DNA from: an uncultured Acidobacteriota bacterium
GTDB lineage: Bacteria > Acidobacteriota > Blastocatellia > Pyrinomonadales > Pyrinomonadaceae
Direction of reading: 5' to 3'
Assembly: GCA_963734445.1 (NCBI GenBank)
Contig: CAVTGZ010000003.1
Coordinates: forward strand, 337,341 to 401,340
DNA: 64,000 nucleotides
Part shown: positions 2,590 through 59,341 of the stretch, one piece after another
Layout of the letters: the number at the start of each line of letters is the position of its first letter
How positions within the stretch are numbered: position 1 is the first letter of the stretch
Program-made: the position numbers and the translations under genes
The notes under the pieces: model-generated
Database searches by the model: none
What the model saw: the letters and a program-made list of their open reading frames with translations, nothing else
Told to the model about the DNA's origin: nothing

Positions 2590-3831
2590 TTAAGGACGGC
2601 GCGGCGAATTGCTCGGTTGCGGTGTGCTCTTGGTCGCCGGCTTGGCCGCCGTTGACGACGTCGTGGCAGTTCGTCCCGAACGCGTCAACGCAATCCGCTT
2701 TTCGCTTCCCGTCGGTTGCGCCACACTCACCTTAATCGAGCGGTAAGAACCATCATGTGCTTTGTTCGTCGGATCGTAGCTGATGACGTATTGCGTCCGC
2801 AGGTCGCGAACAATCTCGTTAGCGATCTGTGGCAGCTCAGAGATTGATTGCGGAAAGAAAGCACGGCCGCCGGTTTCAGTCGCCAGCTTGTTAATGAGAG
2901 TGATCGCTTTGTCCTTTGAACTCTTTCTGATTAGCCCTCTGTCGGCTTCCAATTCATTCACGAATCCGATCACGAAGATCTGCACATCTTCTTCGCGCAA
3001 TCTTCGGAACAATTCGGTTTCCGGATAATAACTGGCGCGATCTTCACCGTCCGTAACCACGATCAATGCGCGGCGGCGGCGGTCGTCATCGTTGTTCTTG
3101 TGATATTCAGCCACGTGCTCAGCGGCGAGATACACGCCATCGATCACGGCGGTTTGTCCACCTTCGATATAGAGCGTGTCCAAGCCATCGAGCAACGTGT
3201 CCTTGTTCGAGCTGAAGTCCTGCACGGTTTCGATCTTGTCGCTGCTAATAAAACGTTCGATAAAAGTTTCGTCGTCCTTCTTGTTGCTGTTGATGATCGT
3301 CTTGGCGGCGTCGATCACCTGATTGAATTGCGGCCGCAGCGAACCGGAAGTGTCGACCGCCAGGCCGTAGATCACCGGCACTTCTTCTTCAGTGAAAGAA
3401 AAAATCGGCTGGGGGACGCCGTCTTCTAACACCCTGAATTCGTCCTTGTTGATGCGATTAATCGGGCGGTTGTTGCGATCGATAACGCGCACGTGCAGCG
3501 TCACCAACTCAGTATTGATGGTGATCCGCTCGCCTTCACCAATTTCCGCAGTGGTTGGGTCCGGGGTCGGCGTCGGCTTCGGTTTCAAAACCGGCGCAGG
3601 CGGCGGCGCGCCAAGTTGCGGCGCGATGCGGCGGCCGGGGCCGGTTTGTTGAACCGGGGTCGTAGTCGGCTGGGGCGTCGGCGTAGCGGTCGCCCCGGTT
3701 TGCCGGGGCCGCGAATCGGGCTGTTGGGCACTGGTAACGCCGGCAATCAAAAGCGACGCGGCAAACAGAAAAGCGGCGAATACCGCGACCGTATTTCGCG
3801 GTGCCTTAATAAGTTGAGTGAAAAATCTCAT
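2590..3831 (-). CDS. VWA domain protein (VWFA-related acidobacterial type, TIGR03436-like)
   Basis: Signal peptide and a Pro/Thr-rich linker. Then INTELVTLHVRVIDRNNRPINRINKDEFRVLEDGVPQPI and the MIDAS-like motif AVDTSGS. Confidence 0.8.
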   Translation of the reverse strand: MRFFTQLIKAPRNTVAVFAAFLFAASLLIAGVTSAQQPDSRPRQTGATATPTPQPTTTPVQQTGPGRRIAPQLGAPPPAPVLKPKPTPTPDPTTAEIGEGERITINTELVTLHVRVIDRNNRPINRINKDEFRVLEDGVPQPIFSFTEEEVPVIYGLAVDTSGSLRPQFNQVIDAAKTIINSNKKDDETFIERFISSDKIETVQDFSSNKDTLLDGLDTLYIEGGQTAVIDGVYLAAEHVAEYHKNNDDDRRRRALIVVTDGEDRASYYPETELFRRLREEDVQIFVIGFVNELEADRGLIRKSSKDKAITLINKLATETGGRAFFPQSISELPQIANEIVRDLRTQYVISYDPTNKAHDGSYRSIKVSVAQPTGSEKRIALTRSGRTATTSSTAAKPATKSTPQPSNSPRRP

Positions 3832-3973
3832 TACTGCTAAACCTTCTCTGAATAAAAGCCCAATGTCAAACCATTTTCGGTGTCAGGAGAGTTTTTGCGG
3901 CCGGGATAAAGATGCGCGAAAGGTGCACTAAAGTTGCCGTGCCGTTTCGCAGTGAGGCTGCTCAAAAAGGGCG

Positions 3974-5107
3974 TCAGAAGCCCTCGCTCACGCTCTGGCT
4001 TCTGACACAAACTACTTCAGGATTGGCGATCGCGAAGTATCCTTCTTTACTGCGGACAAAGAGTCGCGGCAGTCCCCGCGGCGGACTAACCTTGACCTTA
4101 ATCTTGTGCCACTTTCCGTTGCTGATAAAGTTAACCGGGCGATAACCGATCGAATATTGATGGCGCAGCTCTAAAGCGATCTGCTCAAAGATGTCATCCA
4201 TTTCGGCTCCACTCCGAGGGTAAAAAGCTTTGCCCCCCGATACGCCCGCCAGTTCGTCCAGGATTCCCTGGCCTTCCATACCGAGCGCGCTGCCCATGTC
4301 TGTGCCGCCCAGAATCCCAATCGCGTACAGCACGACATCCGATTCTTTCAGCACCCGGCGCAACTCGTTAAAAGTGTAGCGCGAGTTGTTATCCTGGCCA
4401 TCACTAATCAACAACAGCGCGCGCTTGGGATGGGTTCCCCGCTGAACCCGCTCGACGCCGAGATAGCACGCGTCGTACAGCGCCGTGTTGTTTTTGGTCT
4501 GCACAAAGGTGAGCTTATCGAGCACGGCATTGCCGTCGCGCGTTCGATCCATCAACAATTGCGCGCGCGAGTTGAAGCCGATCAGGAAATATTCGTCGCG
4601 GTCGTGGCTGGTTTGAATGAAGTGAGCCAGGGCGTCGCGCGCGCGGTGCACTTTGTCACCGCTCATTGAGCCGGAAACATCGAACAGAATGCCGACCGAA
4701 ACCGGCGCATCTTCATCGCTGAAGAAGGTAATATTCTGCTCCGCTTTGTCGTCAAAGATAGTGAATGCGTTCTGGCCCAGACCGGAAACAAAGCGGCCGT
4801 AAATGTCAGTAACGGTAACCGTGAAAGTGATGAGATCGGTATTGGTGATGACCGGGTTCTTGTCATCAACCTCGCCTTCAGGCAGTTGAATCTTGGTTGA
4901 GGGCTTTTGCGGAGTCTTCTTATTTCCATTGTCCGGCGGCGTGGCCACCGGGGCCGGCTCGACCTTTAATAGTTCCTTCTTTTCTGTCGGCGGCGGTTGT
5001 TTCTCTTCCGGTTTCTGCTGCGCATTTGAAGTTCGGATGGTGAACAACGCGGCGAGAACTGTGGCGGAAATCAACACCAGGCACGCTTTACGTCGAGGCG
5101 ATCTCAT
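3974..5107 (-). CDS. VWA domain protein, paralog of the preceding gene
   Basis: GGGGGAG lies 5 nt upstream of ATG 5107 (MRSPRRKACLV... signal peptide). Contains LITFTVTVTDIYGRFVSGLGQNAFTIFDD, ILFDVSGSM and LLISDGQDN. Confidence 0.8.
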   Translation of the reverse strand: MRSPRRKACLVLISATVLAALFTIRTSNAQQKPEEKQPPPTEKKELLKVEPAPVATPPDNGNKKTPQKPSTKIQLPEGEVDDKNPVITNTDLITFTVTVTDIYGRFVSGLGQNAFTIFDDKAEQNITFFSDEDAPVSVGILFDVSGSMSGDKVHRARDALAHFIQTSHDRDEYFLIGFNSRAQLLMDRTRDGNAVLDKLTFVQTKNNTALYDACYLGVERVQRGTHPKRALLLISDGQDNNSRYTFNELRRVLKESDVVLYAIGILGGTDMGSALGMEGQGILDELAGVSGGKAFYPRSGAEMDDIFEQIALELRHQYSIGYRPVNFISNGKWHKIKVKVSPPRGLPRLFVRSKEGYFAIANPEVVCVRSQSVSEGF

Positions 5108-15311: not shown

Positions 15312-15459
15312 TATGGCTCGGCCACTCCGATGCGCGGCAAGTCTATGACTTGCCGGCACCAGACCCTCTTCATCTTCGGGTCTCAGACCCGAACAACTTT
15401 TAGAAAGATCCGGTCCGGCAAGTCTTAGACTTGCCGCGCATCAGAGTGGCAAAGCCATT
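15312..15459. repeat. MITE-like element, family D, copy D1 (about 45-nt terminal inverted arms)
   Basis: TATGGCTCGGCCACTCCGATGCGCGGCAAGTCTATGACTTGCCGG ... CCGGCAAGTCTTAGACTTGCCGCGCATCAGAGTGGCAAAGCCATT. Confidence 0.8.
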
Positions 15460-15541
15460 GGAAAAGAATTAGATCGCGTGGGCTAAAGCGTTCTTACCAT
15501 GTCCTTGCGTGAGTCAAGTATGTTATTGCCGAAACCCGCCG

Positions 15542-16516
15542 TTAACGGTGTCCGATCGCTGCGGTCACGCTTTCCGAGCCACTCCGGCGGCTAACGATCT
15601 TTCGCTTGGAAATTTCTTTTTTCGCTCTGGGACCGTGCTTCAACGGCCGCGCCACCAGCACCGGACAGGGCGCTTGCCGCAACACGCGATCGACGTTCGA
15701 GCCGAACAGCGTCAGAATCCCAAAACCCGCACCGTGTGCGCCGATGCAGACCAAATCAATCTCGTTTCGTTCGGCGTAATGCAGAATTTCACGATAGGGC
15801 TGACCCTCGCTGATGACGTTTTTGATGTCGCACCACAAGTGCGCTTCGTCAGGAACAGCTTTTTGTAAACGGCGCGCAGCCTTGTGATAGACGCCTTCTT
15901 TCCCCAGCGGATACCAGGAGATTTCACTCTCGTTCAAAGTAAAGGGGGGCAGGACGTGCAGCAGGTGCAACTCGGCCTGATATTCCTGAGCAATCAACAA
16001 ACCGAGGCGGAGCGCCAGCTCTGAGTGATCGGAAAAATCGTAGGCCACCAGGATGCGCTTCAGTCCGATTTGACGATCCTCCGGATTAACCCAATCTCGC
16101 TCATCCGTGTGAATCACGAGCACCGGACACGGAGCGGTACGGGACACTGATTCAGCGACCGATCCCAGCAGTGCCGCACGATGCGGCCGCCGTCGCGAAC
16201 GCATGATAATCAAATCGGCGGCGCATTTGGCCGCCTCTCTCGTAATGCAGTCCCCGGGATCGTCACAGTTCACTACGGCCGCCTGGCAGCTCAACGCTTC
16301 GAGCTCAGCCGGAGTCGCCGACTTCATTAACGCCGTGCCCATGATCTCATTCGGACTTCCGGTCACGATGGGTTGGCCCGCCTCGCTCGGACCCGGCTGG
16401 CAATACATCTGAATTAATTCTGCTTCGTACGCGCGCGCCAGGGCCAGGCCATAACGCAGCGCCGCTTCAGAATCCGGCGTCAAATCAGTTGGACAAAGAA
16501 TGCGTTCGATTCTCAT
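15542..16516 (-). CDS. tandem universal stress protein (two UspA domains)
   Basis: From ATG 16516: MRIERILCPTDLTPDSEAAL...; DLIIMRSRRRPHRAALLGSVAESVSRTAPCPVLV and DLVCIGAHGAGFGILTLFGSNVDRVLRQAPCPVLV. The longer ORF up to 16831 runs into repeat D2. Confidence 0.8.
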   Translation of the reverse strand: MRIERILCPTDLTPDSEAALRYGLALARAYEAELIQMYCQPGPSEAGQPIVTGSPNEIMGTALMKSATPAELEALSCQAAVVNCDDPGDCITREAAKCAADLIIMRSRRRPHRAALLGSVAESVSRTAPCPVLVIHTDERDWVNPEDRQIGLKRILVAYDFSDHSELALRLGLLIAQEYQAELHLLHVLPPFTLNESEISWYPLGKEGVYHKAARRLQKAVPDEAHLWCDIKNVISEGQPYREILHYAERNEIDLVCIGAHGAGFGILTLFGSNVDRVLRQAPCPVLVARPLKHGPRAKKEISKRKIVSRRSGSESVTAAIGHR

Positions 16517-16713
16517 AAGCTCCAAACAGGGATTCCAGAATCTCTGCACCTCGCTACCACAACTTGAGCAATGACTGTGCCGGGTCATTCGCGTCCGAAT
16601 CACGCGAAACTGAGCGAGCCCGCACACTGCACTTTTTATTTCTGTGGTCTTTTGCTCAGCGTGTGGGAAAGTTTGCTCACGACGCGTCAGGGTCGGGTCT
16701 TGACGCAGCTCAT

Positions 16714-16869
16714 AATGGCTTTGCCACTCCGATGCGCGGCGAGTCTTCGACTTGCCGTTAGTGGCCATGTAGATGACGGTCTGGGACCGTTGGGGTCGGA
16801 GACCGTATCCAGAGGGGTTCGCTGCCGGCAAGTCATAGACTTGCCGCGCATCAGAGTGGCAAAGCCATT
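16714..16869. repeat. MITE-like element, family D, copy D2
   Basis: AATGGCTTTGCCACTCCGATGCGCGGCGAGTCTTCGACTTGCCG ... CCGGCAAGTCATAGACTTGCCGCGCATCAGAGTGGCAAAGCCATT. Confidence 0.8.
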
Positions 16870-16965
16870 AGACTGGATGAGCCAAGTATTTTATTGCCTT
16901 CTTAGGCAACGACGTATCGGTTCTGACAACCGAGCCAAGTAAATGCGGAACTCCAAACCAAATTT

Positions 16966-31771: not shown

Positions 31772-31869
31772 CCTCTGCGCCTCCTCTGCGTGCTCGGCGT
31801 CTCTGCGGTGAATGTTTTTGAGCGTTTGTTCACCGCTGAGGCGCGGAGGTCGCGGAGATTACGCAGAGA
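31772..31869. repeat. Family A hairpin repeat, copy A3 (between the SDR and the reductase subunit gene)
   Basis: CCTCTGCGCCTCCTCTGCGTGCTCGGCGTCTCTGCGGTGAA ... TTCACCGCTGAGGCGCGGAGGTCGCGGAGATTACGCAGAG. Confidence 0.7.
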
Positions 31870-31881
31870 AAAGCCGAATCG

Positions 31882-34420: not shown

Positions 34421-34582
34421 CTCTCCCTTCTCCCACTGGGAGAAGGGTCGGGGATGAGGGTGTGAAGCTTAGCGCGAAAGTATTTTTTTGAGCACCGTCA
34501 TGGGTAACCACGACAACGCTAAATCAAGAATAGGTCCTCGCCAGGCCCTCACCCCAACCCTCTCCCAAAGGGAGAGGGAGAA
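34421..34582. repeat. Family E element E1: two inverted 36-40-nt units bounding an about 80-nt spacer
   Basis: CTCCCTTCTCCCACTGGGAGAAGGGTCGGGGATGAGGGTG (left) and GCCCTCACCCCAACCCTCTCCCAAAGGGAGAGGGAG (right) are reverse complements of each other. Confidence 0.8.
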
Positions 34583-35400: not shown

Positions 35401-35402
35401 GT

Positions 35403-35500
35403 TCTCTGCGTTAACTCTGCGCTCTTTGCGTCTCAGCGGTGAATCCCGGATGCGAAGAGTTCACCGCAGAGACGCCGAGGTCGCAAAGACCGCGCTGAGA
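35403..35500. repeat. Family A hairpin repeat, copy A4 (between the two ATPase genes)
   Basis: CTCTGCGTTAACTCTGCGCTCTTTGCGTCTCAGCGGTGAA-TCCCGGATGCGAAGAG-TTCACCGCAGAGACGCCGAGGTCGCAAAG. Confidence 0.75.
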
Positions 35501-43540: not shown

Positions 43541-43697
43541 TTCCCTCTCCCCCTGGGAGAGGGTTAGGGTGAGGGCTTACCGCGACGTACCTCTATTTGC
43601 TTTTCACTATCGCGCGGCTGAGCCGCGCGCAGGAAATTCAAAACTTATTTTCTCCTCAAACCCTCACCCCGGCCCTCTCCCAAAGGGAGAGGGAGAC
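43541..43697. repeat. Family E element E2
   Basis: TTCCCTCTCCCCCTGGGAGAGGGTTAGGGTGAGGGC (left) and CCCTCACCCCGGCCCTCTCCCAAAGGGAGAGGGAGA (right) are inverted. Internal GC hairpin CGCGCGGC-TGA-GCCGCGCG at 43611..43629. Confidence 0.8.
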
Positions 43698-46308: not shown

Positions 46309-47934
46309 ATGAATCTTCAATTTCTTAGTTCGCCTCTGGCTTTCATTGAAAACCTGATCGACGATGAGGCCGCCGCCGTTTTGAGCGACTACGAATCGTG
46401 GTGGCTCGCAGAGGGCATGTCGATCTCTGAATCGGTCGATCGCGCCGGGACGCCGCATCTGCGCATGTTCGATCAAATCGGCCATCGCGTTGATGAGCTT
46501 CTGTTCCAGCCTGAGTATTGGAAGATGCTGAGAAAGGGTTACGAGACGGGCTCGCTTTGGCGCGCGTTCGCCGGCAATTCGCTCAAGACGCATTACCTGA
46601 TCGATTACGTCACTTGCTTCTTCGATGCCGGCCTCGGCTGTCCTCACATTGTTTCGCTATCGACGACGGTGCCGCTGAAAAAGTACGGCACGCCGGAACT
46701 GCAAGAACGGTTTTTGCTGCCCCTGCTGCGCCGCGACGGAACGAACTGGCAGGGCGCGACGTGGATGACTGAAGTTAAAGGCGGTTCGGATCTGGGCGCG
46801 AACGTCGAGACGGTCGCGCGCCCAACGGGAGATCATTGGCTCCTCACGGGTGACAAGTATTTCGCCAGCAACGTCGGCGCGGAAGTAGCGATCGTGGCCG
46901 CGCGTCCCGAAGGCGCACCCACCGGACCTAAAGGTCTGGCCCTCTTTCTCGTGCCGCGCTATCGCTCAGATTTTCACGGCGTAGCCGTGACAGATAGTAG
47001 CCGGCGGCAAGCCGGGGTCCCCCAGCGGGGCATCCCCGCTGGGGTGGAAGTGCGAAGCACGCCGCCCCCGGAACCCCTCCCATTAATGATTCCCCAGCCC
47101 GATTTAGCGGGAGTCAACAAGGGATCAGATCTCAACTACTTCATTCGCCGCCTCAAGCCAAAGATAGGTACGCGTTCGGTGCCCACCGGTGAAGTCGAGC
47201 TACGTGACAGCGAAGCTTATCTCCTCGGCAAACCCGAGTGGGGCATCTATCTGATTCTTGAATCGCTGAATCTCTCGCGGGTCGGCAACATCGTCGGCAG
47301 CGTGGCCCTGGCCCAGCGAGCGCTCGCCGACGCACTCACCTTCGCCGAAACCCGCGTCGCGTTTGGCCGTCCCATCGTCGAGCATCCACTGCTCCGTCGT
47401 CAGTTCGCGGAACGGTTCGCGCAACTGAGTGACGCGCGCGCCCTGATGTGGGAAGCAATTCAGCTACTTGAAGAAGTCTGGCAAGAGACACCGCGGGACA
47501 AGTCGAACGAACATTCAGGTTATTCAGATCGCTATCACCTGTTTCGGCTGGTCACGCATCTGGCGAAGTACTGGACGGCCGAGCTGGCAGTCCAGTTCGC
47601 CAAGTGGAACATGGAAGTGCACGGCGGTATGGGCGTGCTCGCGGAGTACTCGGCCGAGCGTTGGCTGCGCGAAGCTATGATTCTGCCCATCTGGGAAGGC
47701 ACGCCGCATCGCCAGATGCTCGATGGCCTGGAAGTGATGGAACGCAAGCGCGCGCATGAGTTGCTCTTTGAGCATCTCGCGCCGCACGCGGATCCTTCGG
47801 AGCTTCAGAACATCTCTTCCCGAATCGAAAATCATTTGCGGCTGCCACCGGAAGAAAAGGAAGCGGGTATTGAATCTGTCTTCAACGAACTGGCGGCATT
47901 CACTGCGCGGACATTGGCGAGAAAGTATCCATGA
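46309..47934 (+). CDS. acyl-CoA dehydrogenase family protein (AidB-like) carrying an in-frame 53-codon insertion
   Basis: GATWMTEVKGGSDLG, GDKYFASNV, LFLVPR, RRLKPKIGTRSVPTGEVEL and EVHGGMGV. See the insertion at 46972..47124. Confidence 0.85.
   Translation: MNLQFLSSPLAFIENLIDDEAAAVLSDYESWWLAEGMSISESVDRAGTPHLRMFDQIGHRVDELLFQPEYWKMLRKGYETGSLWRAFAGNSLKTHYLIDYVTCFFDAGLGCPHIVSLSTTVPLKKYGTPELQERFLLPLLRRDGTNWQGATWMTEVKGGSDLGANVETVARPTGDHWLLTGDKYFASNVGAEVAIVAARPEGAPTGPKGLALFLVPRYRSDFHGVAVTDSSRRQAGVPQRGIPAGVEVRSTPPPEPLPLMIPQPDLAGVNKGSDLNYFIRRLKPKIGTRSVPTGEVELRDSEAYLLGKPEWGIYLILESLNLSRVGNIVGSVALAQRALADALTFAETRVAFGRPIVEHPLLRRQFAERFAQLSDARALMWEAIQLLEEVWQETPRDKSNEHSGYSDRYHLFRLVTHLAKYWTAELAVQFAKWNMEVHGGMGVLAEYSAERWLREAMILPIWEGTPHRQMLDGLEVMERKRAHELLFEHLAPHADPSELQNISSRIENHLRLPPEEKEAGIESVFNELAAFTARTLARKYP
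46972..47124 (-). mobile_element. Family F repeat inserted in frame in the ACAD gene, flanked by direct repeat TCAGAT (46966..46971 and 47125..47130)
   Basis: Collinear with the reverse complement of 51094..51199 (TCACGGCrTAGCCGTGACAGATAkTAGCCGG ... CCCCCGGA ... TTTAGCGGG). Perfect hairpin CCCCAGCGGGG-CAT-CCCCGCTGGGG at 47020..47044. The direct repeats are 159 nt apart. Confidence 0.7.
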
Positions 47935-47987
47935 CCCGTGCGGCCAGTGAACTAATTTGACCAATAATCTATCTGGCTCATCCAATC

Positions 47988-48024
47988 CAATGGCTCAGCC
48001 ACTCCGATGCGCGGCAAGTCCTGG
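47988..48024. repeat. Solo arm of family D (copy D3, partial)
   Basis: CCAATGGCTCAGCCACTCCGATGCGCGGCAAGTCCTGG. The matching second arm is absent. Confidence 0.6.
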
Positions 48025-48148
48025 TTCACTGAACTGAGCTTCAATCTGCGTGAGGCTTCTTGCGCAATGGCTCTGCCATTATGAAGGCGTAGGCTGTCGG
48101 CCGCTCTTCCCTCTTTACGTGAACCATTCTGCGCAGTCTTCGTAATCT

Positions 48149-48853: not shown

Positions 48854-48971
48854 CGGGGATGCTTGGACCGCGGGCATTAAGCCCTCTATGGGAGCGCGGG
48901 CATCCTGCCCGCGGCGAGCGCGTAGTGCGAGCATTAAGCGCCTGAGCCGACATACTCGTGTCTTAGTTTGA

Positions 48972-49068
48972 CTTTGCGCGTCTTTGCGCCTTGGCGTCTT
49001 TGCGTGAAATCCTTTCTTGATTGTGGTTCTCACGCAAAGGCGCAGAGCCGCAAAGCAAAACCGCAAAG
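48972..49068. repeat. Family A variant (CTTTGCG/CGCAAAG), copy A6
   Basis: CTTTGCGCGTCTTTGCGCCTTGGCGTCTTTGCGTGAA ... TCACGCAAAGGCGCAGAGCCGCAAAGCAAAACCGCAAAG. Confidence 0.7.
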
Positions 49069-49202
49069 TAAGAGACTACCCCTAACTCGCCTAATTTTTC
49101 CTCCGCCGGCTCTACCAAAATTACGATTCACCACCCGCATTGGCGCATTCCCTTCAATCCATCTAATATCAAGTGTACATTTCGGCGGATGGTGAAAAGG
49201 AC

Positions 49203-50093: not shown

Positions 50094-50645
50094 TCAGGGC
50101 CCAAAGATTCCGCCGAGAATGCTGCCGGTGCGACTGCGGTTGTTGCCATAGCCGCCGTTTCCGTAACCGCCGTACTGTCGATAACCCTGGGCATAACCCT
50201 GTTCGAAGCCACTGCGAAAGGCTTGCGAAGAAGCGTTCTTCCAGTAGTGCGATCGCTGCGGGCTATAGCTTTGACGACGTTGCGCGTCACTGGCGCCGGT
50301 GTTCAAGCCGTACTGGTAACCCTGGTTTACTTCCGCCTGATTGCCGTAGTTCCCGTAGCCGCCATAGTTACCATAGCCACCGTTGTTTCCGTAGCCGCGA
50401 TTATCGCGACGGTATTGATCTTCGCGACGCTGGCGTTCTTGTTGCTGTCGCTGCCAATCGCGATTCTGGCTCTGGTTGTTCGACCATTGATCGTTGCGAT
50501 CGCGTCTTCGCTCCGAGCGTCGCTCGTCACGGTCACGGTCACGTCGACCCTGCGCCTGCGCAGTCATCCCTGCCGCCGCTGATATGCCGAATATAAAAGC
50601 GAGCGTTAAGATAGCGCCGCCAATCTTCTTACTTAAATTTTTCAT
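50094..50645 (-). CDS. secreted low-complexity protein (Arg/Asp/Glu-rich then GGYGN-rich)
   Basis: Signal peptide MKNLSKKIGGAILTLAFIFGISAAAGMTAQA, then RRDRDRDERRSERRRDRNDQ..., GYGNNGGYGNYGGYGNYGN and GFEQGYAQGYRQYGGYGNGGYGNN. Confidence 0.6.
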   Translation of the reverse strand: MKNLSKKIGGAILTLAFIFGISAAAGMTAQAQGRRDRDRDERRSERRRDRNDQWSNNQSQNRDWQRQQQERQRREDQYRRDNRGYGNNGGYGNYGGYGNYGNQAEVNQGYQYGLNTGASDAQRRQSYSPQRSHYWKNASSQAFRSGFEQGYAQGYRQYGGYGNGGYGNNRSRTGSILGGIFGP

Positions 50646-50906
50646 CTGGTGTTCTCCCCTTCTAGAAAAGCAGCGGCAAGGCGCGTTCCTTCAATCGGCG
50701 AGATGAGGGGATGTTGATTTGCAGGAGTTACGGCTGAAGCCGCGAGCGCATCTTCCCCGTTTCGTATGGAGATCACGCCGAGTAGACGTTTCGGGGGATT
50801 TGGTGAGCGGTTTCATGAGCACAATAATCTTGACCGGTAGCGGAGGTTGAATCCAAAGTGCCATCGTTCCCGACACGTCGGAACGCTGCCAGTGCTTTCC
50901 AAATGT

Positions 50907-50996
50907 CGCCCGCTAAAGCGGGCTTGGGAAGTCTTTCTGGTCGCGATCCCCGGGCTTACGCCCGGTGCTATTACATGCCGCCGCTTCGCGGCTGGA
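50907..50996 (+). repeat. Family F repeat, short copy
   Basis: CGCCCGCTAAAGCGGGC ... GATCCCCGGGCTTACGCCCGGTGCTATTACATGCCGCCGCTTCGCGGCTGG. Confidence 0.65.
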
Positions 50997-51093
50997 CACG
51001 AAGTAAGCCGCAGATTCGCATACCACAAAAGAAGTGACGCACAAACGCCGTTGTTTCTAATCTGTGGAATCTGCGTAATCTGTGGATATGTTT

Positions 51094-51199
51094 CGCCCGC
51101 TAAAGTGGCTGTGAAAATGATTGGGATCGTGATCCGGGGGTGGCGTCCCGACAAATCGGGACTTACCCCCGGCTAATATCTGTCACGGCTATGCCGTGA
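51094..51199 (+). repeat. Family F repeat, intergenic reference copy
   Basis: CGCCCGCTAAAGTGG ... GATCCGGGGGTGGCGTCCCGACAAATCGGGACTTACCCCCGGCTAATATCTGTCACGGCTATGCCGTGA. Confidence 0.7.
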
Positions 51200-51241
51200 A
51201 GACAAATCTTTCCCAAACGGACTGGCCTCGACACTCTCAGC

Positions 51242-59034: not shown

Positions 59035-59283
59035 AGCTGCGAAGCAGCGGCCAAAAGCTAAGCCCAAGGCGGGGCTTTGTGAGCCTTGGGTGAAGGTAGC
59101 AGAATCTGTCAGAGCCGCGGAGCGGCGACCGGCCTGCTAACGGACTGTTCGTAATCGGCTCAAAGGTTCGATGAATTGACGTTCTCTGGCGCCGCTCCGC
59201 GGGCTCTGAATAATTGTTGGGCGCGTGACCCCAGGGCTCGCCAAGCCTCACCCTGAGCTTAGCTCTGGCGCTGCTTCGCAGCT
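59035..59283. repeat. 249-nt imperfect palindrome (family J), potential long hairpin/MITE
   Basis: Outer arms AGCTGCGAAGCAGCGGCCAAAAGCTAAGC / GCTTAGCTCTGGCGCTGCTTCGCAGCT. Inner arms TCAGAGCCGCGGAGCGGCG (59109..59127) / CGCCGCTCCGCGGGCTCTGA (59190..59209). Confidence 0.75.
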
Positions 59284-59341
59284 AGTTGAAGGCTCAGATC
59301 CTTCTCGCCTTGGGGCGATTGCCGAGCTGGTTACGGTCACG

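Follow-up and report, generated by a model that had tools for sequence, protein, structure and literature searches.

The Rickettsia palindromic elements (RPEs), in the work of Ogata and colleagues of 2000 and 2002, are said to occur both between genes and in frame within protein-coding genes. The stems of the RPEs carry a CGTC tag (PMC3733652), and intragenic copies have also been documented for the repetitive extragenic palindromic (REP) sequences, in a study that recalls the in-frame RPEs of Rickettsia (Di Nocera et al. 2013, PMC3733652). [quoted passage not shown] The Acido-Lenti-1 family (RF01687), which has 89 representatives in the Acidobacteria and Lentisphaerae and no known function, is sometimes found near group II introns (PMC2864571), and occurs in multiple copies in the Acidobacteria (Weinberg et al. 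2010, PMC2864571). In the stretch of DNA analyzed here, 64,000 nucleotides from an uncultured Acidobacteriota bacterium of the family Pyrinomonadaceae (contig CAVTGZ010000003.1; hereafter, the window), a three-hairpin repeat is present in full length at positions 46972-47118, within the gene for an AidB-like acyl-CoA dehydrogenase (ACAD), where it falls in a beta-hairpin turn of the enzyme's middle domain.

The interpretation favored here, and held to be probable, is that of a repeat-derived, in-frame, and tolerated insertion in the ACAD, which is either old or recurrent, has its frame kept by selection, and belongs to a family similar to the REPs and the bacterial interspersed mosaic elements (BIMEs). 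The comparison with the RPEs, which had been proposed in a first-pass annotation of the window, made from the sequence without database searches, is apt, given that this is a multi-copy palindromic repeat that is also found between genes, and that keeps the frame of an intact, otherwise functional-looking gene, in whose predicted fold only the insert is disordered. As in the RPEs, the repeat is palindromic, ~100-150 nt long, and both intergenic and genic in frame, with the host genes remaining intact and the peptide being placed where the fold tolerates it. Unlike the RPEs, to which it is unrelated in both sequence and phylum, and which are found in many genes, it was found here in this one ACAD family only.

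A three-hairpin repeat within an acyl-CoA dehydrogenase gene

The insert was compared with a covariance model (R1) of 105 positions, built from 19 intergenic copies only, with all the gene copies being excluded. The model matches the plus strand of the insert from the first to the last of its 105 positions (63.1 bits, E 8e-12). Within the window, positions 46973-47011 are 90% identical over 39 nt to the reverse complement of 51162-51200 (E 1e-9), and the 3' part of the insert matches 50909-50930. The nucleotide similarity is thus significant, and it bears out the first-pass proposal of a non-coding dispersed repeat that lies in frame in an unbroken ACAD gene and runs collinear with the copies at 50.9 and 51.1 kb in reverse complement. 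All the coordinates given in this proposal are correct, and other parts of it also hold, including the two TCAGAT hexamers 159 nt apart, the reading of the ORF through the insert, the 11-bp hairpin, and the AidB-type assignment of the enzyme (Pfam; PDB 3djl). The outline of the element has changed, from 153 nt bounded by TCAGAT to a three-hairpin unit of ~108 nt with a nested segment of 39 nt, followed by a junction of 6-12 nt (Table 1).

Table 1. Features of the ACAD gene and its insert, the other copies in the window, and the gene copies in three of the fetched loci (window coordinates unless a locus is named)
Feature	Position	Strand	Remarks
AidB-like ACAD gene, host of the insert	46309-47934	+	541 aa; ORF list, Pfam, and PDB matches
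5' junction TCAGAT (S D)	46966-46971	+	TCCGAT in L001, TCGACT in L002, TCAGGT in L026
Three-hairpin dispersed repeat (extended Acido-Lenti-1 family), full-length, in frame	46972-47118	+	Encodes residues 222-270; model R1
Hairpin A, T-CACGGC GTA GCCGTG-A	46974-46990	+	Intact in the window copy; read from the sequence
Single-stranded linker CAGATAGTAG	46991-47000	+	Its GTAG lies directly against the foot of hairpin B; columns almost invariant (alignments A1 and A3)
Hairpin B	47001-47071	+	Outer stem CCGGCGGC with GCCCCCGG; inside it are the nested hairpin and a tip of GTGC-GAA-GCAC
Codon CAA (Gln)	47008-47010	+	TAA in most intergenic copies; compensating G at 47064, on the opposite arm
Nested 39-nt hairpin module	47012-47050	+	13 codons, AGVPQRGIPAGVE; not in the L001 and L002 gene copies
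Perfect 11-bp stem of the nested module, CCCCAGCGGGG-CAT-CCCCGCTGGGG	47020-47044	+	Read from the sequence
Hairpin C, GCCCGA TTTA GCGGGA	47097-47112	+	Partly decayed, 4/6 pairs left
GTCAAC	47113-47118	+	Aligns to the family terminus GACAGA
3' junction AAGGGATCAGAT (K G S D)	47119-47130	+	Beyond the conserved repeat, past the end of the R1 match
Intergenic copy, short hairpin B	50902-50996	-	R1 55.7 bits
Intergenic copy, long hairpin B, in tandem with the 50902-50996 copy	51089-51201	-	R1 89.7 bits, E 9e-18
Fourth, more divergent intergenic copy	59185-59286	-	R1 33.4 bits, E 3e-5; between two minus-strand genes
Gene copy in L002	963-1070		R1 95.7 bits
Gene copy in L001	10673-10780		R1 80.8 bits
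Gene copy in L026	10753-10849		R1 31.8 bits

The unit of the family, of ~105 nt, is formed by hairpin A (CACGGC-GTA-GCCGTG), a linker (ACAGATAGTAG), hairpin B, a spacer, hairpin C (GCCCGC-GAA-GCGGGC), and the tail GACAGA. Hairpin B has an outer stem (CCGGGGGT/ACCCCCGG) and a variable apical stem-loop, and it is followed by GGATC and then by the variable spacer, of ~25 nt, which leads to hairpin C. The tetranucleotide that precedes hairpin B is GTAG in the long-stem subfamily, and ATAG or AAAG in the short-stem subfamilies. The outer stem of hairpin B in the window copy has a single C/C mismatch (47005/47067).

Application of R1 to 179 kb of fetched DNA recovered 46 copies at E <1e-3. The window has four copies, and ~40 are found in other contigs of the Blastocatellia. 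In the 46 copies, 95.8% of the stem cells are in standard pairs, and compensatory changes are found at 20 of the 25 pairs, a level of covariation that far exceeds that of shuffled and slid controls in this model-fitted alignment. The same result is given by alignment A1, made with MAFFT, in which 97.8% of the cells are paired and seven pairs covary. The signal is present throughout the unit, with compensatory changes at 6/7 pairs of helix 1 (hairpin A), covariation of helices 2 and 3 (hairpin B), and covariation at 6/6 pairs of helix 4 (hairpin C). Exact words undercount the family because its stems covary, and a covariance model was therefore needed. An exact 21-mer of the conserved core (GCCGTGACAGATANTAGCCGG) has three matches in 185,579 representative species genomes, which do not include the source genome, and 18 in metagenomes. 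The genome matches are in Chloracidobacterium and Pyrinomonadaceae metagenome-assembled genomes (MAGs), and all the matches are intergenic, except for one chance match (L011).

Hairpins also nest inside hairpins. In the apical loop of hairpin B, a module of the 39-nt type, made up of CGGGGTCCCC, a stem-loop, and GGGGTGG, is found both in the window (47012-47050) and in L021 (~2330-2370), and in L025 (~2390-2440; 2403) a PGAVATGS-type repeat, which is unrelated, has within it a version whose stem covaries (GGCGCGG-CAG-CCGCGCT). This module, acquired by hairpin B of the window copy as a second hairpin, has the appearance of an independent small hairpin element, with the loops of other hairpin repeats as its targets. 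Free copies of the family in L006, L014, L022, L005, and L015 share an upstream extension, GA(T/G)TCCGC(G/A)CG(T/C)GA, before TTTCACGG, 14-25 nt upstream of hairpin A. Some subfamilies may have a fourth conserved module of this kind, which the gene copies lack.

The host ORF is uninterrupted across the inserted segment, and the Pfam matches of its product, AidB_N (PF18158), Acyl-CoA_dh_M (PF02770), and Acyl-CoA_dh_1 (PF00441), indicate that the N-terminal, middle beta, and C-terminal helical domains of an ACAD are all present. Sequence matches in the PDB include 6sd8 (Bd2924), 5ez3, 4y9j, and E. coli AidB (3djl). The alignments with 6sd8, 5ez3, and 3djl cover residues 1-217 and resume at ~270, being split at the insert, where ~56 residues (217-272) stand opposite ~5 residues of 6sd8, and residues 218-272 are passed over by the PDB ACADs. 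The protein thus has ~53 residues more than the solved ACAD structures, in a segment that maps to a beta-hairpin turn, the outcome of a comparison with ACAD and AidB homologs and structures that the first-pass annotation had recommended. An AlphaFold2 model, based on a 62-sequence alignment, reached a predicted TM-score (pTM) of 0.85, and its sole long stretch of low confidence, with a predicted local distance difference test (pLDDT) score of <50, comprises residues 224-269, with strand 211-216 of the middle beta domain before it and strand 278-282 after it. The model matches 6sd8 and AidB (3djl) in Foldseek, with TM-scores of 0.76-0.83. The insert is predicted to be a disordered excursion off the turn between the LFLVPR and LNYFIRRLK strands. 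Outside the insert, the protein is ~82% identical to its orthologs.

Read in the frame of the ACAD, the typical free copies contain one stop codon (GGG TAA G), whereas all three long-stem gene copies have CAA in place of TAA, with the partner base on the other arm changed from A to G, a T-A to C-G change that preserves the stem pair. The nested hairpin is exactly 13 codons long, the 3' junctions of the orthologs differ in length by multiples of three, and the reading frame is maintained in four orthologs. The CAA codon, the 39-nt module, and the differences in threes argue for selection for an open frame, and hence for translation, in which case the ribosome would read through the repeat and add ~50 disordered, solvent-exposed residues, with the enzyme fold remaining intact. 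The predicted translation of the insert would include tryptic peptides such as GIPAGVEVR and STPPPEPLPLMIPQPDLAGVNK. A HMMER search of 1.84 billion cluster representatives with the 55-aa insert peptide returned one spurious hit, to a repeat protein, and a word-indexed search with a 41-aa insert peptide, using a tool unsuited to short queries, found nothing, not even the ortholog P0003. Among the 46 copies, a long ORF contains the repeat only in the case of the ACAD copies, and copies in many unrelated genes were not found in the 64 kb of the source genome or among the cluster representatives.

The length of the loop varies across the orthologs, as would be expected of an ordinary, lineage-specific variable loop that resembles the repeat by chance, and a pseudogene or an assembly chimera might also be considered. 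These explanations are hardly credible, however, and are refuted by the full-length R1 match and the AlphaFold2 fold, which is predicted confidently outside the loop, in addition to the intact ORF and the conservation of the rest of the protein. The insert is not an artifact of assembly, being present in four assemblies that are independent of one another.

Age and occupancy of the loop

The set of orthologs analyzed here comprises 120 sequences, mostly from Pyrinomonadaceae MAGs, which are also the source of the nearest named homologs. Exactly seven residues separate LVP from LNY in 84 of these orthologs (e.g., RYRDDGQ), and none has fewer. The loop of the insertion-free sequences follows the pattern xYR-[DE]-[DN]-G-x-LNY, and a serine immediately after xYR is found in 14 of the 33 insertion-bearing orthologs and in none of the 87 others. 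Excision between the TCAGAT hexamers, which had been thought to restore YRSD-LNYFIRRLK, with the short spacing of the AidB-type enzymes, would leave only five residues (RYRSD), fewer than in any ortholog. An alternative parse, in which 46972-47121 is removed, leaves RYR-SDG-SD, with eight residues and the canonical D-G kept, and loops of this length are also found in two orthologs (RYRDDGAT and RYREADGE). The GGA triplet within the 3' junction may represent the glycine of the host loop.

The proposal that the element landed in the gene also needs correction, in that it did not simply do so in this genome. The ACADs of L001 and L002 have the repeat at the same codon position as the window, without the 39-nt internal hairpin, and that of L026 (P0065) has a short-stem copy, of a different subfamily, in the same loop, orientation, and frame. 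The genes of the window, L001, L002, and L003, which has an empty site, are ~75% identical in their DNA, and ~52% identical at the third codon positions, which are saturated. Given that at least three other deeply diverged orthologs are occupied at the same codon position, the insertion would be either old or recurrent, and the comparison of these sequences leads to the conclusion that the site has long been occupied. Close homologs with the same segment, which had been named in advance as evidence against a repeat, do exist (P0002 and P0003), and the repeat origin nevertheless stands, because what they have there is this same repeat, which is also found between genes in their genomes.

The core of the element, of 53 nt, is 96-98% identical among the three gene copies, with 16-17 of its 17 third positions being identical, which has a probability of ~3e-4 if they evolved at the rate found elsewhere in the gene. 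Drift is seen in these copies in the spacer, in hairpin C, and in the 5' arm of hairpin A, with an identity over the spacer and hairpin C of 53-65% between the gene copies, and 60-70% between the gene copies and the free ones. Similarity of the spacers as a sign of the orthology of the gene copies was convincing by eye, and unsupported on measurement. The conservation of the core is open to interpretation as inheritance with constraint at the level of the nucleotides, as gene conversion from the free copies, or as repeated re-insertion.

Constraint of this kind would be expected if the embedded copy were kept as a nucleic-acid element, that is, as an antisense Acido-Lenti-1 small RNA gene, or as an mRNA or DNA structure with an effect on ACAD expression, with the peptide being a by-product. 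This is consistent with the concentration of the identity in the part that corresponds to the Rfam motif, with the decay of the spacer and hairpin C, and with the maintenance of the stem pair by the T-A to C-G change. It is nevertheless judged to be unlikely, given the uncompensated mutations of hairpin A in L001 and L002, and the mismatch in hairpin B of the window copy. Gene conversion from the free copies predicts equal conservation, the counts of G-U and A-C mismatches (22 vs. 13) leave the transcribed strand of the repeat undecided, and Acido-Lenti-1 itself is a family without known function.

The diversity of the inserts points to a further possibility. In all, 33 of the 120 orthologs have inserts in this same loop, of at least four peptide classes, two of which can be traced to unrelated intergenic families. 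Over 34 nt, the PGAVATGS-class insert (L027) does not differ from an intergenic repeat in L006 (4695-4728; 100% identity), and it also matches repeats in five other loci, and the NPTVREG-class insert (L028) has exact 18-mers in common with intergenic sites in L015 and L018. In P0012, two repeat families lie side by side in the loop. The loop may, then, be an intragenic landing pad that is hit repeatedly, either because resident hairpins attract more of them or because it is a preferred target, with copies being removed precisely, in a process of turnover. This remains a tentative alternative, somewhat less probable than its negation. Besides the variety of the inserts, it would account for the 5' junction of L026, which is the same as that of the window in 15/18 nt (by eye) and is followed by a copy of a different subfamily, for the nested insertions in hairpin loops in the window, L021, and L025, for the ~25 changes needed to explain the presence and absence of the insert on a neighbor-joining tree, and for the conservation of the core far beyond that of the neutral sites of the gene. 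Monophyly of the insert-bearing orthologs was not recovered in the neighbor-joining trees or in 20 bootstrap replicates. However, the tree is star-like and unsupported, which makes any count of gains or losses imprecise. No empty and filled pair of near-identical genomes that would reveal a recent event was found, and the common 5' junction and the CAA and GGAACC variants are also expected from simple inheritance.

Other hairpin repeats are found in the same protein family and in the window, which is generally rich in several unrelated families of this type. A second loop of the ACAD, ~15 residues upstream (AARPEGAP...GLALF), has an insert, GTGVSPVNHAQDARAT(S)TPH, in ~35 of the 120 orthologs, among P0052-P0120, and none in the window protein. 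The protein sequence of this insert looks like the translation of another GC-rich hairpin repeat. That of the insert of P0020 (PPPMGEGRGGGLARPKPSPLSPLPAGEGN) looks like the translation of the CCCTCACCCC...CCCTCTCCCAAAGGGAGAGGGA family, which would be a further family in the same ACAD loop, and which has copies in the window at 34537-34581, 43542-43576, and 43652-43696. An inverted-pair repeat with arms of ~45 nt (ATGGCTnnGCCACTCCGATGCGCGGCAAGTC...) occurs at 15313-15462, 16713-16896, and 47962-48032, apparently always between genes, the last of these copies being located 28 nt past the stop codon of the ACAD. Long inverted-repeat or hairpin sequences (TTCACCGCAGAGACGCCGAGG...) are found at 31773-31870, 35402-35499, and 48968-49071. 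A match of the last of these regions to the plant microRNA family MIR4239 in Rfam is spurious (25.7 bits, against a threshold of 100), and the region is simply another long hairpin.

Target sites and mobilization

The TCAGAT hexamers at 46966-46971 and 47125-47130 flank the segment exactly, and were first taken for a target-site duplication, as would be left by the recent insertion of a classical cut-and-paste MITE. This claim did not survive a test of 42 copies, whose flanks (14 nt) were set against mismatched-flank controls, and in which repeats of at least 6 nt were found in only two of the 42 copies, the insert being one of them, against 1.8% of the controls, no better than chance and with no systematic duplication. 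The mean longest word shared by the flanks was 3.55 nt, and 3.34 nt in the controls. In addition, 6 nt separate the end of the conserved unit from the 3' TCAGAT, and the orthologous inserts have no TCAGAT-like flanking duplication. While the MITEs resemble the present family in being small, non-autonomous repeats, they have terminal inverted repeats and target duplications, and this family has neither, as the alignment of the copies shows no terminal inverted repeats, the ends being hairpin A, on one side, and hairpin C plus GACAGA, on the other, in direct orientation. The excised loop would be shorter than that of any of the orthologs, and the insert is common to orthologs with saturated synonymous sites. 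A recent MITE insertion is thus very improbable. The hexamers may both be host sequence, as in the alternative parse, or may represent a small local duplication, and the data cannot decide between the two.

The REPs and BIMEs, with their GTAG motif, provide a closer parallel. Like these, the present copies are hairpin repeats that are mostly extragenic, in co-directional or convergent contexts, with none in a divergent one. The flanking genes of the free copies are co-directional in the same sense in 14 cases, co-directional in the opposite sense in eight, convergent in eight, and divergent in none. Clusters are found in both orientations, as tandem and inverted doublets, with tandem arrays in the window at 50.9/51.1 kb and in L002, which has five copies at 3304-3993, and tail-to-tail inverted pairs in L012, L015, and L017. 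Occasional in-gene copies have likewise been documented for the REPs (PMC3733652), and the (G/A)TAG that abuts the stem of hairpin B may be a further point of resemblance, although the tetranucleotide is GTAG in the long-stem subfamily only. Unlike the REPs, which are single palindromes of 20-40 nt, the unit combines three different hairpins, joined by conserved single-stranded linkers, and no REP-associated tyrosine transposase (RAYT) gene is associated with it in the fetched loci or the window.

The gene order of L002 and the window is alike, with the ACAD followed by a small membrane protein, msrA, and then the three-hairpin cluster, which is made up of the five tandem copies in L002, and in the window, of two copies in the opposite orientation, beyond a minus-strand gene (50094-50645) located after msrA. 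The position of the cluster near msrA may be conserved.

The distribution of the copies, which are almost always intergenic, co-directional or convergent, and arranged in tandem or inverted pairs, without terminal inverted repeats or duplications, points to a single-strand mobilization that recognizes hairpins. This would occur in trans, and might be mediated by a Y1/HUH enzyme, for example, although this is unproven. One IS200/RAYT-like Y1_Tnp gene, encoding 128 aa, is found in L001 (16251-16637, minus strand), with inverted palindromic repeats (TCTCACCYGGCTKMAGCCRGGTGAACA) on both sides (15950-16900). This arrangement is similar to a REPtron for another family of repeats, in a genome which also has an ACAD insert. 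A tblastn search found no second copy of this gene in any of the fetched loci or the window.

Several points weigh against the favored interpretation. The count of copies in the source genome covers 64 kb, and no transposase is linked to the family, the inverted repeats on either side of the sole Y1_Tnp gene among the fetched loci being of another family. In the spacer and hairpin C, the gene copies resemble the free copies at least as much as they resemble each other, and with the carriers unclustered in the neighbor-joining trees, a single ancient insertion and repeated site-specific insertion are not separable. A very old insert that is passively translated would not, alone, explain a core that is so much more conserved than the third positions of the gene, and translation across the insert follows only from the conservation of the ORF. 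Even so, a tolerated insertion derived from a repeat is still the preferred explanation.

Acido-Lenti-1 and the wider significance of the repeat

On the strand antisense to the ACAD gene, the succession of hairpin B, linker, and hairpin A constitutes the Acido-Lenti-1 motif. One copy in the window passes the gathering threshold of RF01687, of 37 bits (50948-50993, plus strand; 47.2 bits), as do the short-hairpin-B copies in L015, L017, L021, and L024. The match at 51148-51198 is sub-threshold, as are that of the gene copy in L026 (34.3 bits) and that within the ACAD insert (46975-47015, minus strand; 22.5 bits, E 0.055), although the cmscan alignment of the latter has both stems and the conserved linker GCUA..U.UG.C. 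The stems of the motif are helices 1 and 2, both of which covary across the 46 copies. The unit described here differs from the Rfam family in a number of respects. The Rfam model is of 46 nt, and represents a small RNA gene, whereas the present unit, of ~105 nt, has a third hairpin and the GACAGA tail, and its subfamily with an extended hairpin B falls below the Rfam threshold. Neither the behavior of a dispersed repeat nor the copies within genes form part of the description of Acido-Lenti-1. The flanks of the seed alignment of Weinberg et al. also show a further hairpin, ~25 nt upstream, in both Koribacter and Lentisphaera, and the larger, three-hairpin unit is therefore general.

A more far-reaching account, which is speculative and rather doubtful as a whole, would treat the Acido-Lenti-1 "small RNA" as the core of a hairpin-guided repeat mobilized as a single strand, in the manner of elements derived from IS200/IS605, with precise excision and no target duplication. 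Under this account, the turn of the ACAD would have served as a landing pad throughout the radiation of the Pyrinomonadaceae, where a number of unrelated families would insert, nest, and be lost again, with constant selection for the frame.

The results suggest that Acido-Lenti-1, an Rfam family of unknown function, belongs to a larger REP-like repeat and is not a small RNA gene in its own right. The new elements here are the identity of the repeat, as an extended Acido-Lenti-1 unit, the nested hairpin, the presence of the insert in several diverged orthologs, and the use of one loop by unrelated families. The findings extend the in-frame colonization of genes by palindromic repeats, which is classic in Rickettsia and sporadic for the REPs, to the soil Acidobacteriota. 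They also provide a warning for annotation, in that peptides such as AVTDSSRGQVRSTPPPEP, PGAVATGS, and NPTVREG in the proteins of the Acidobacteria are translated repeats, and not conserved protein motifs. At least three repeat families that are unrelated to one another have been taken up by a single loop in different lineages, one of them with a nested module, and this series of loops offers natural material on the tolerance of proteins for disordered segments derived from repeats, and perhaps on the recruitment of these segments.

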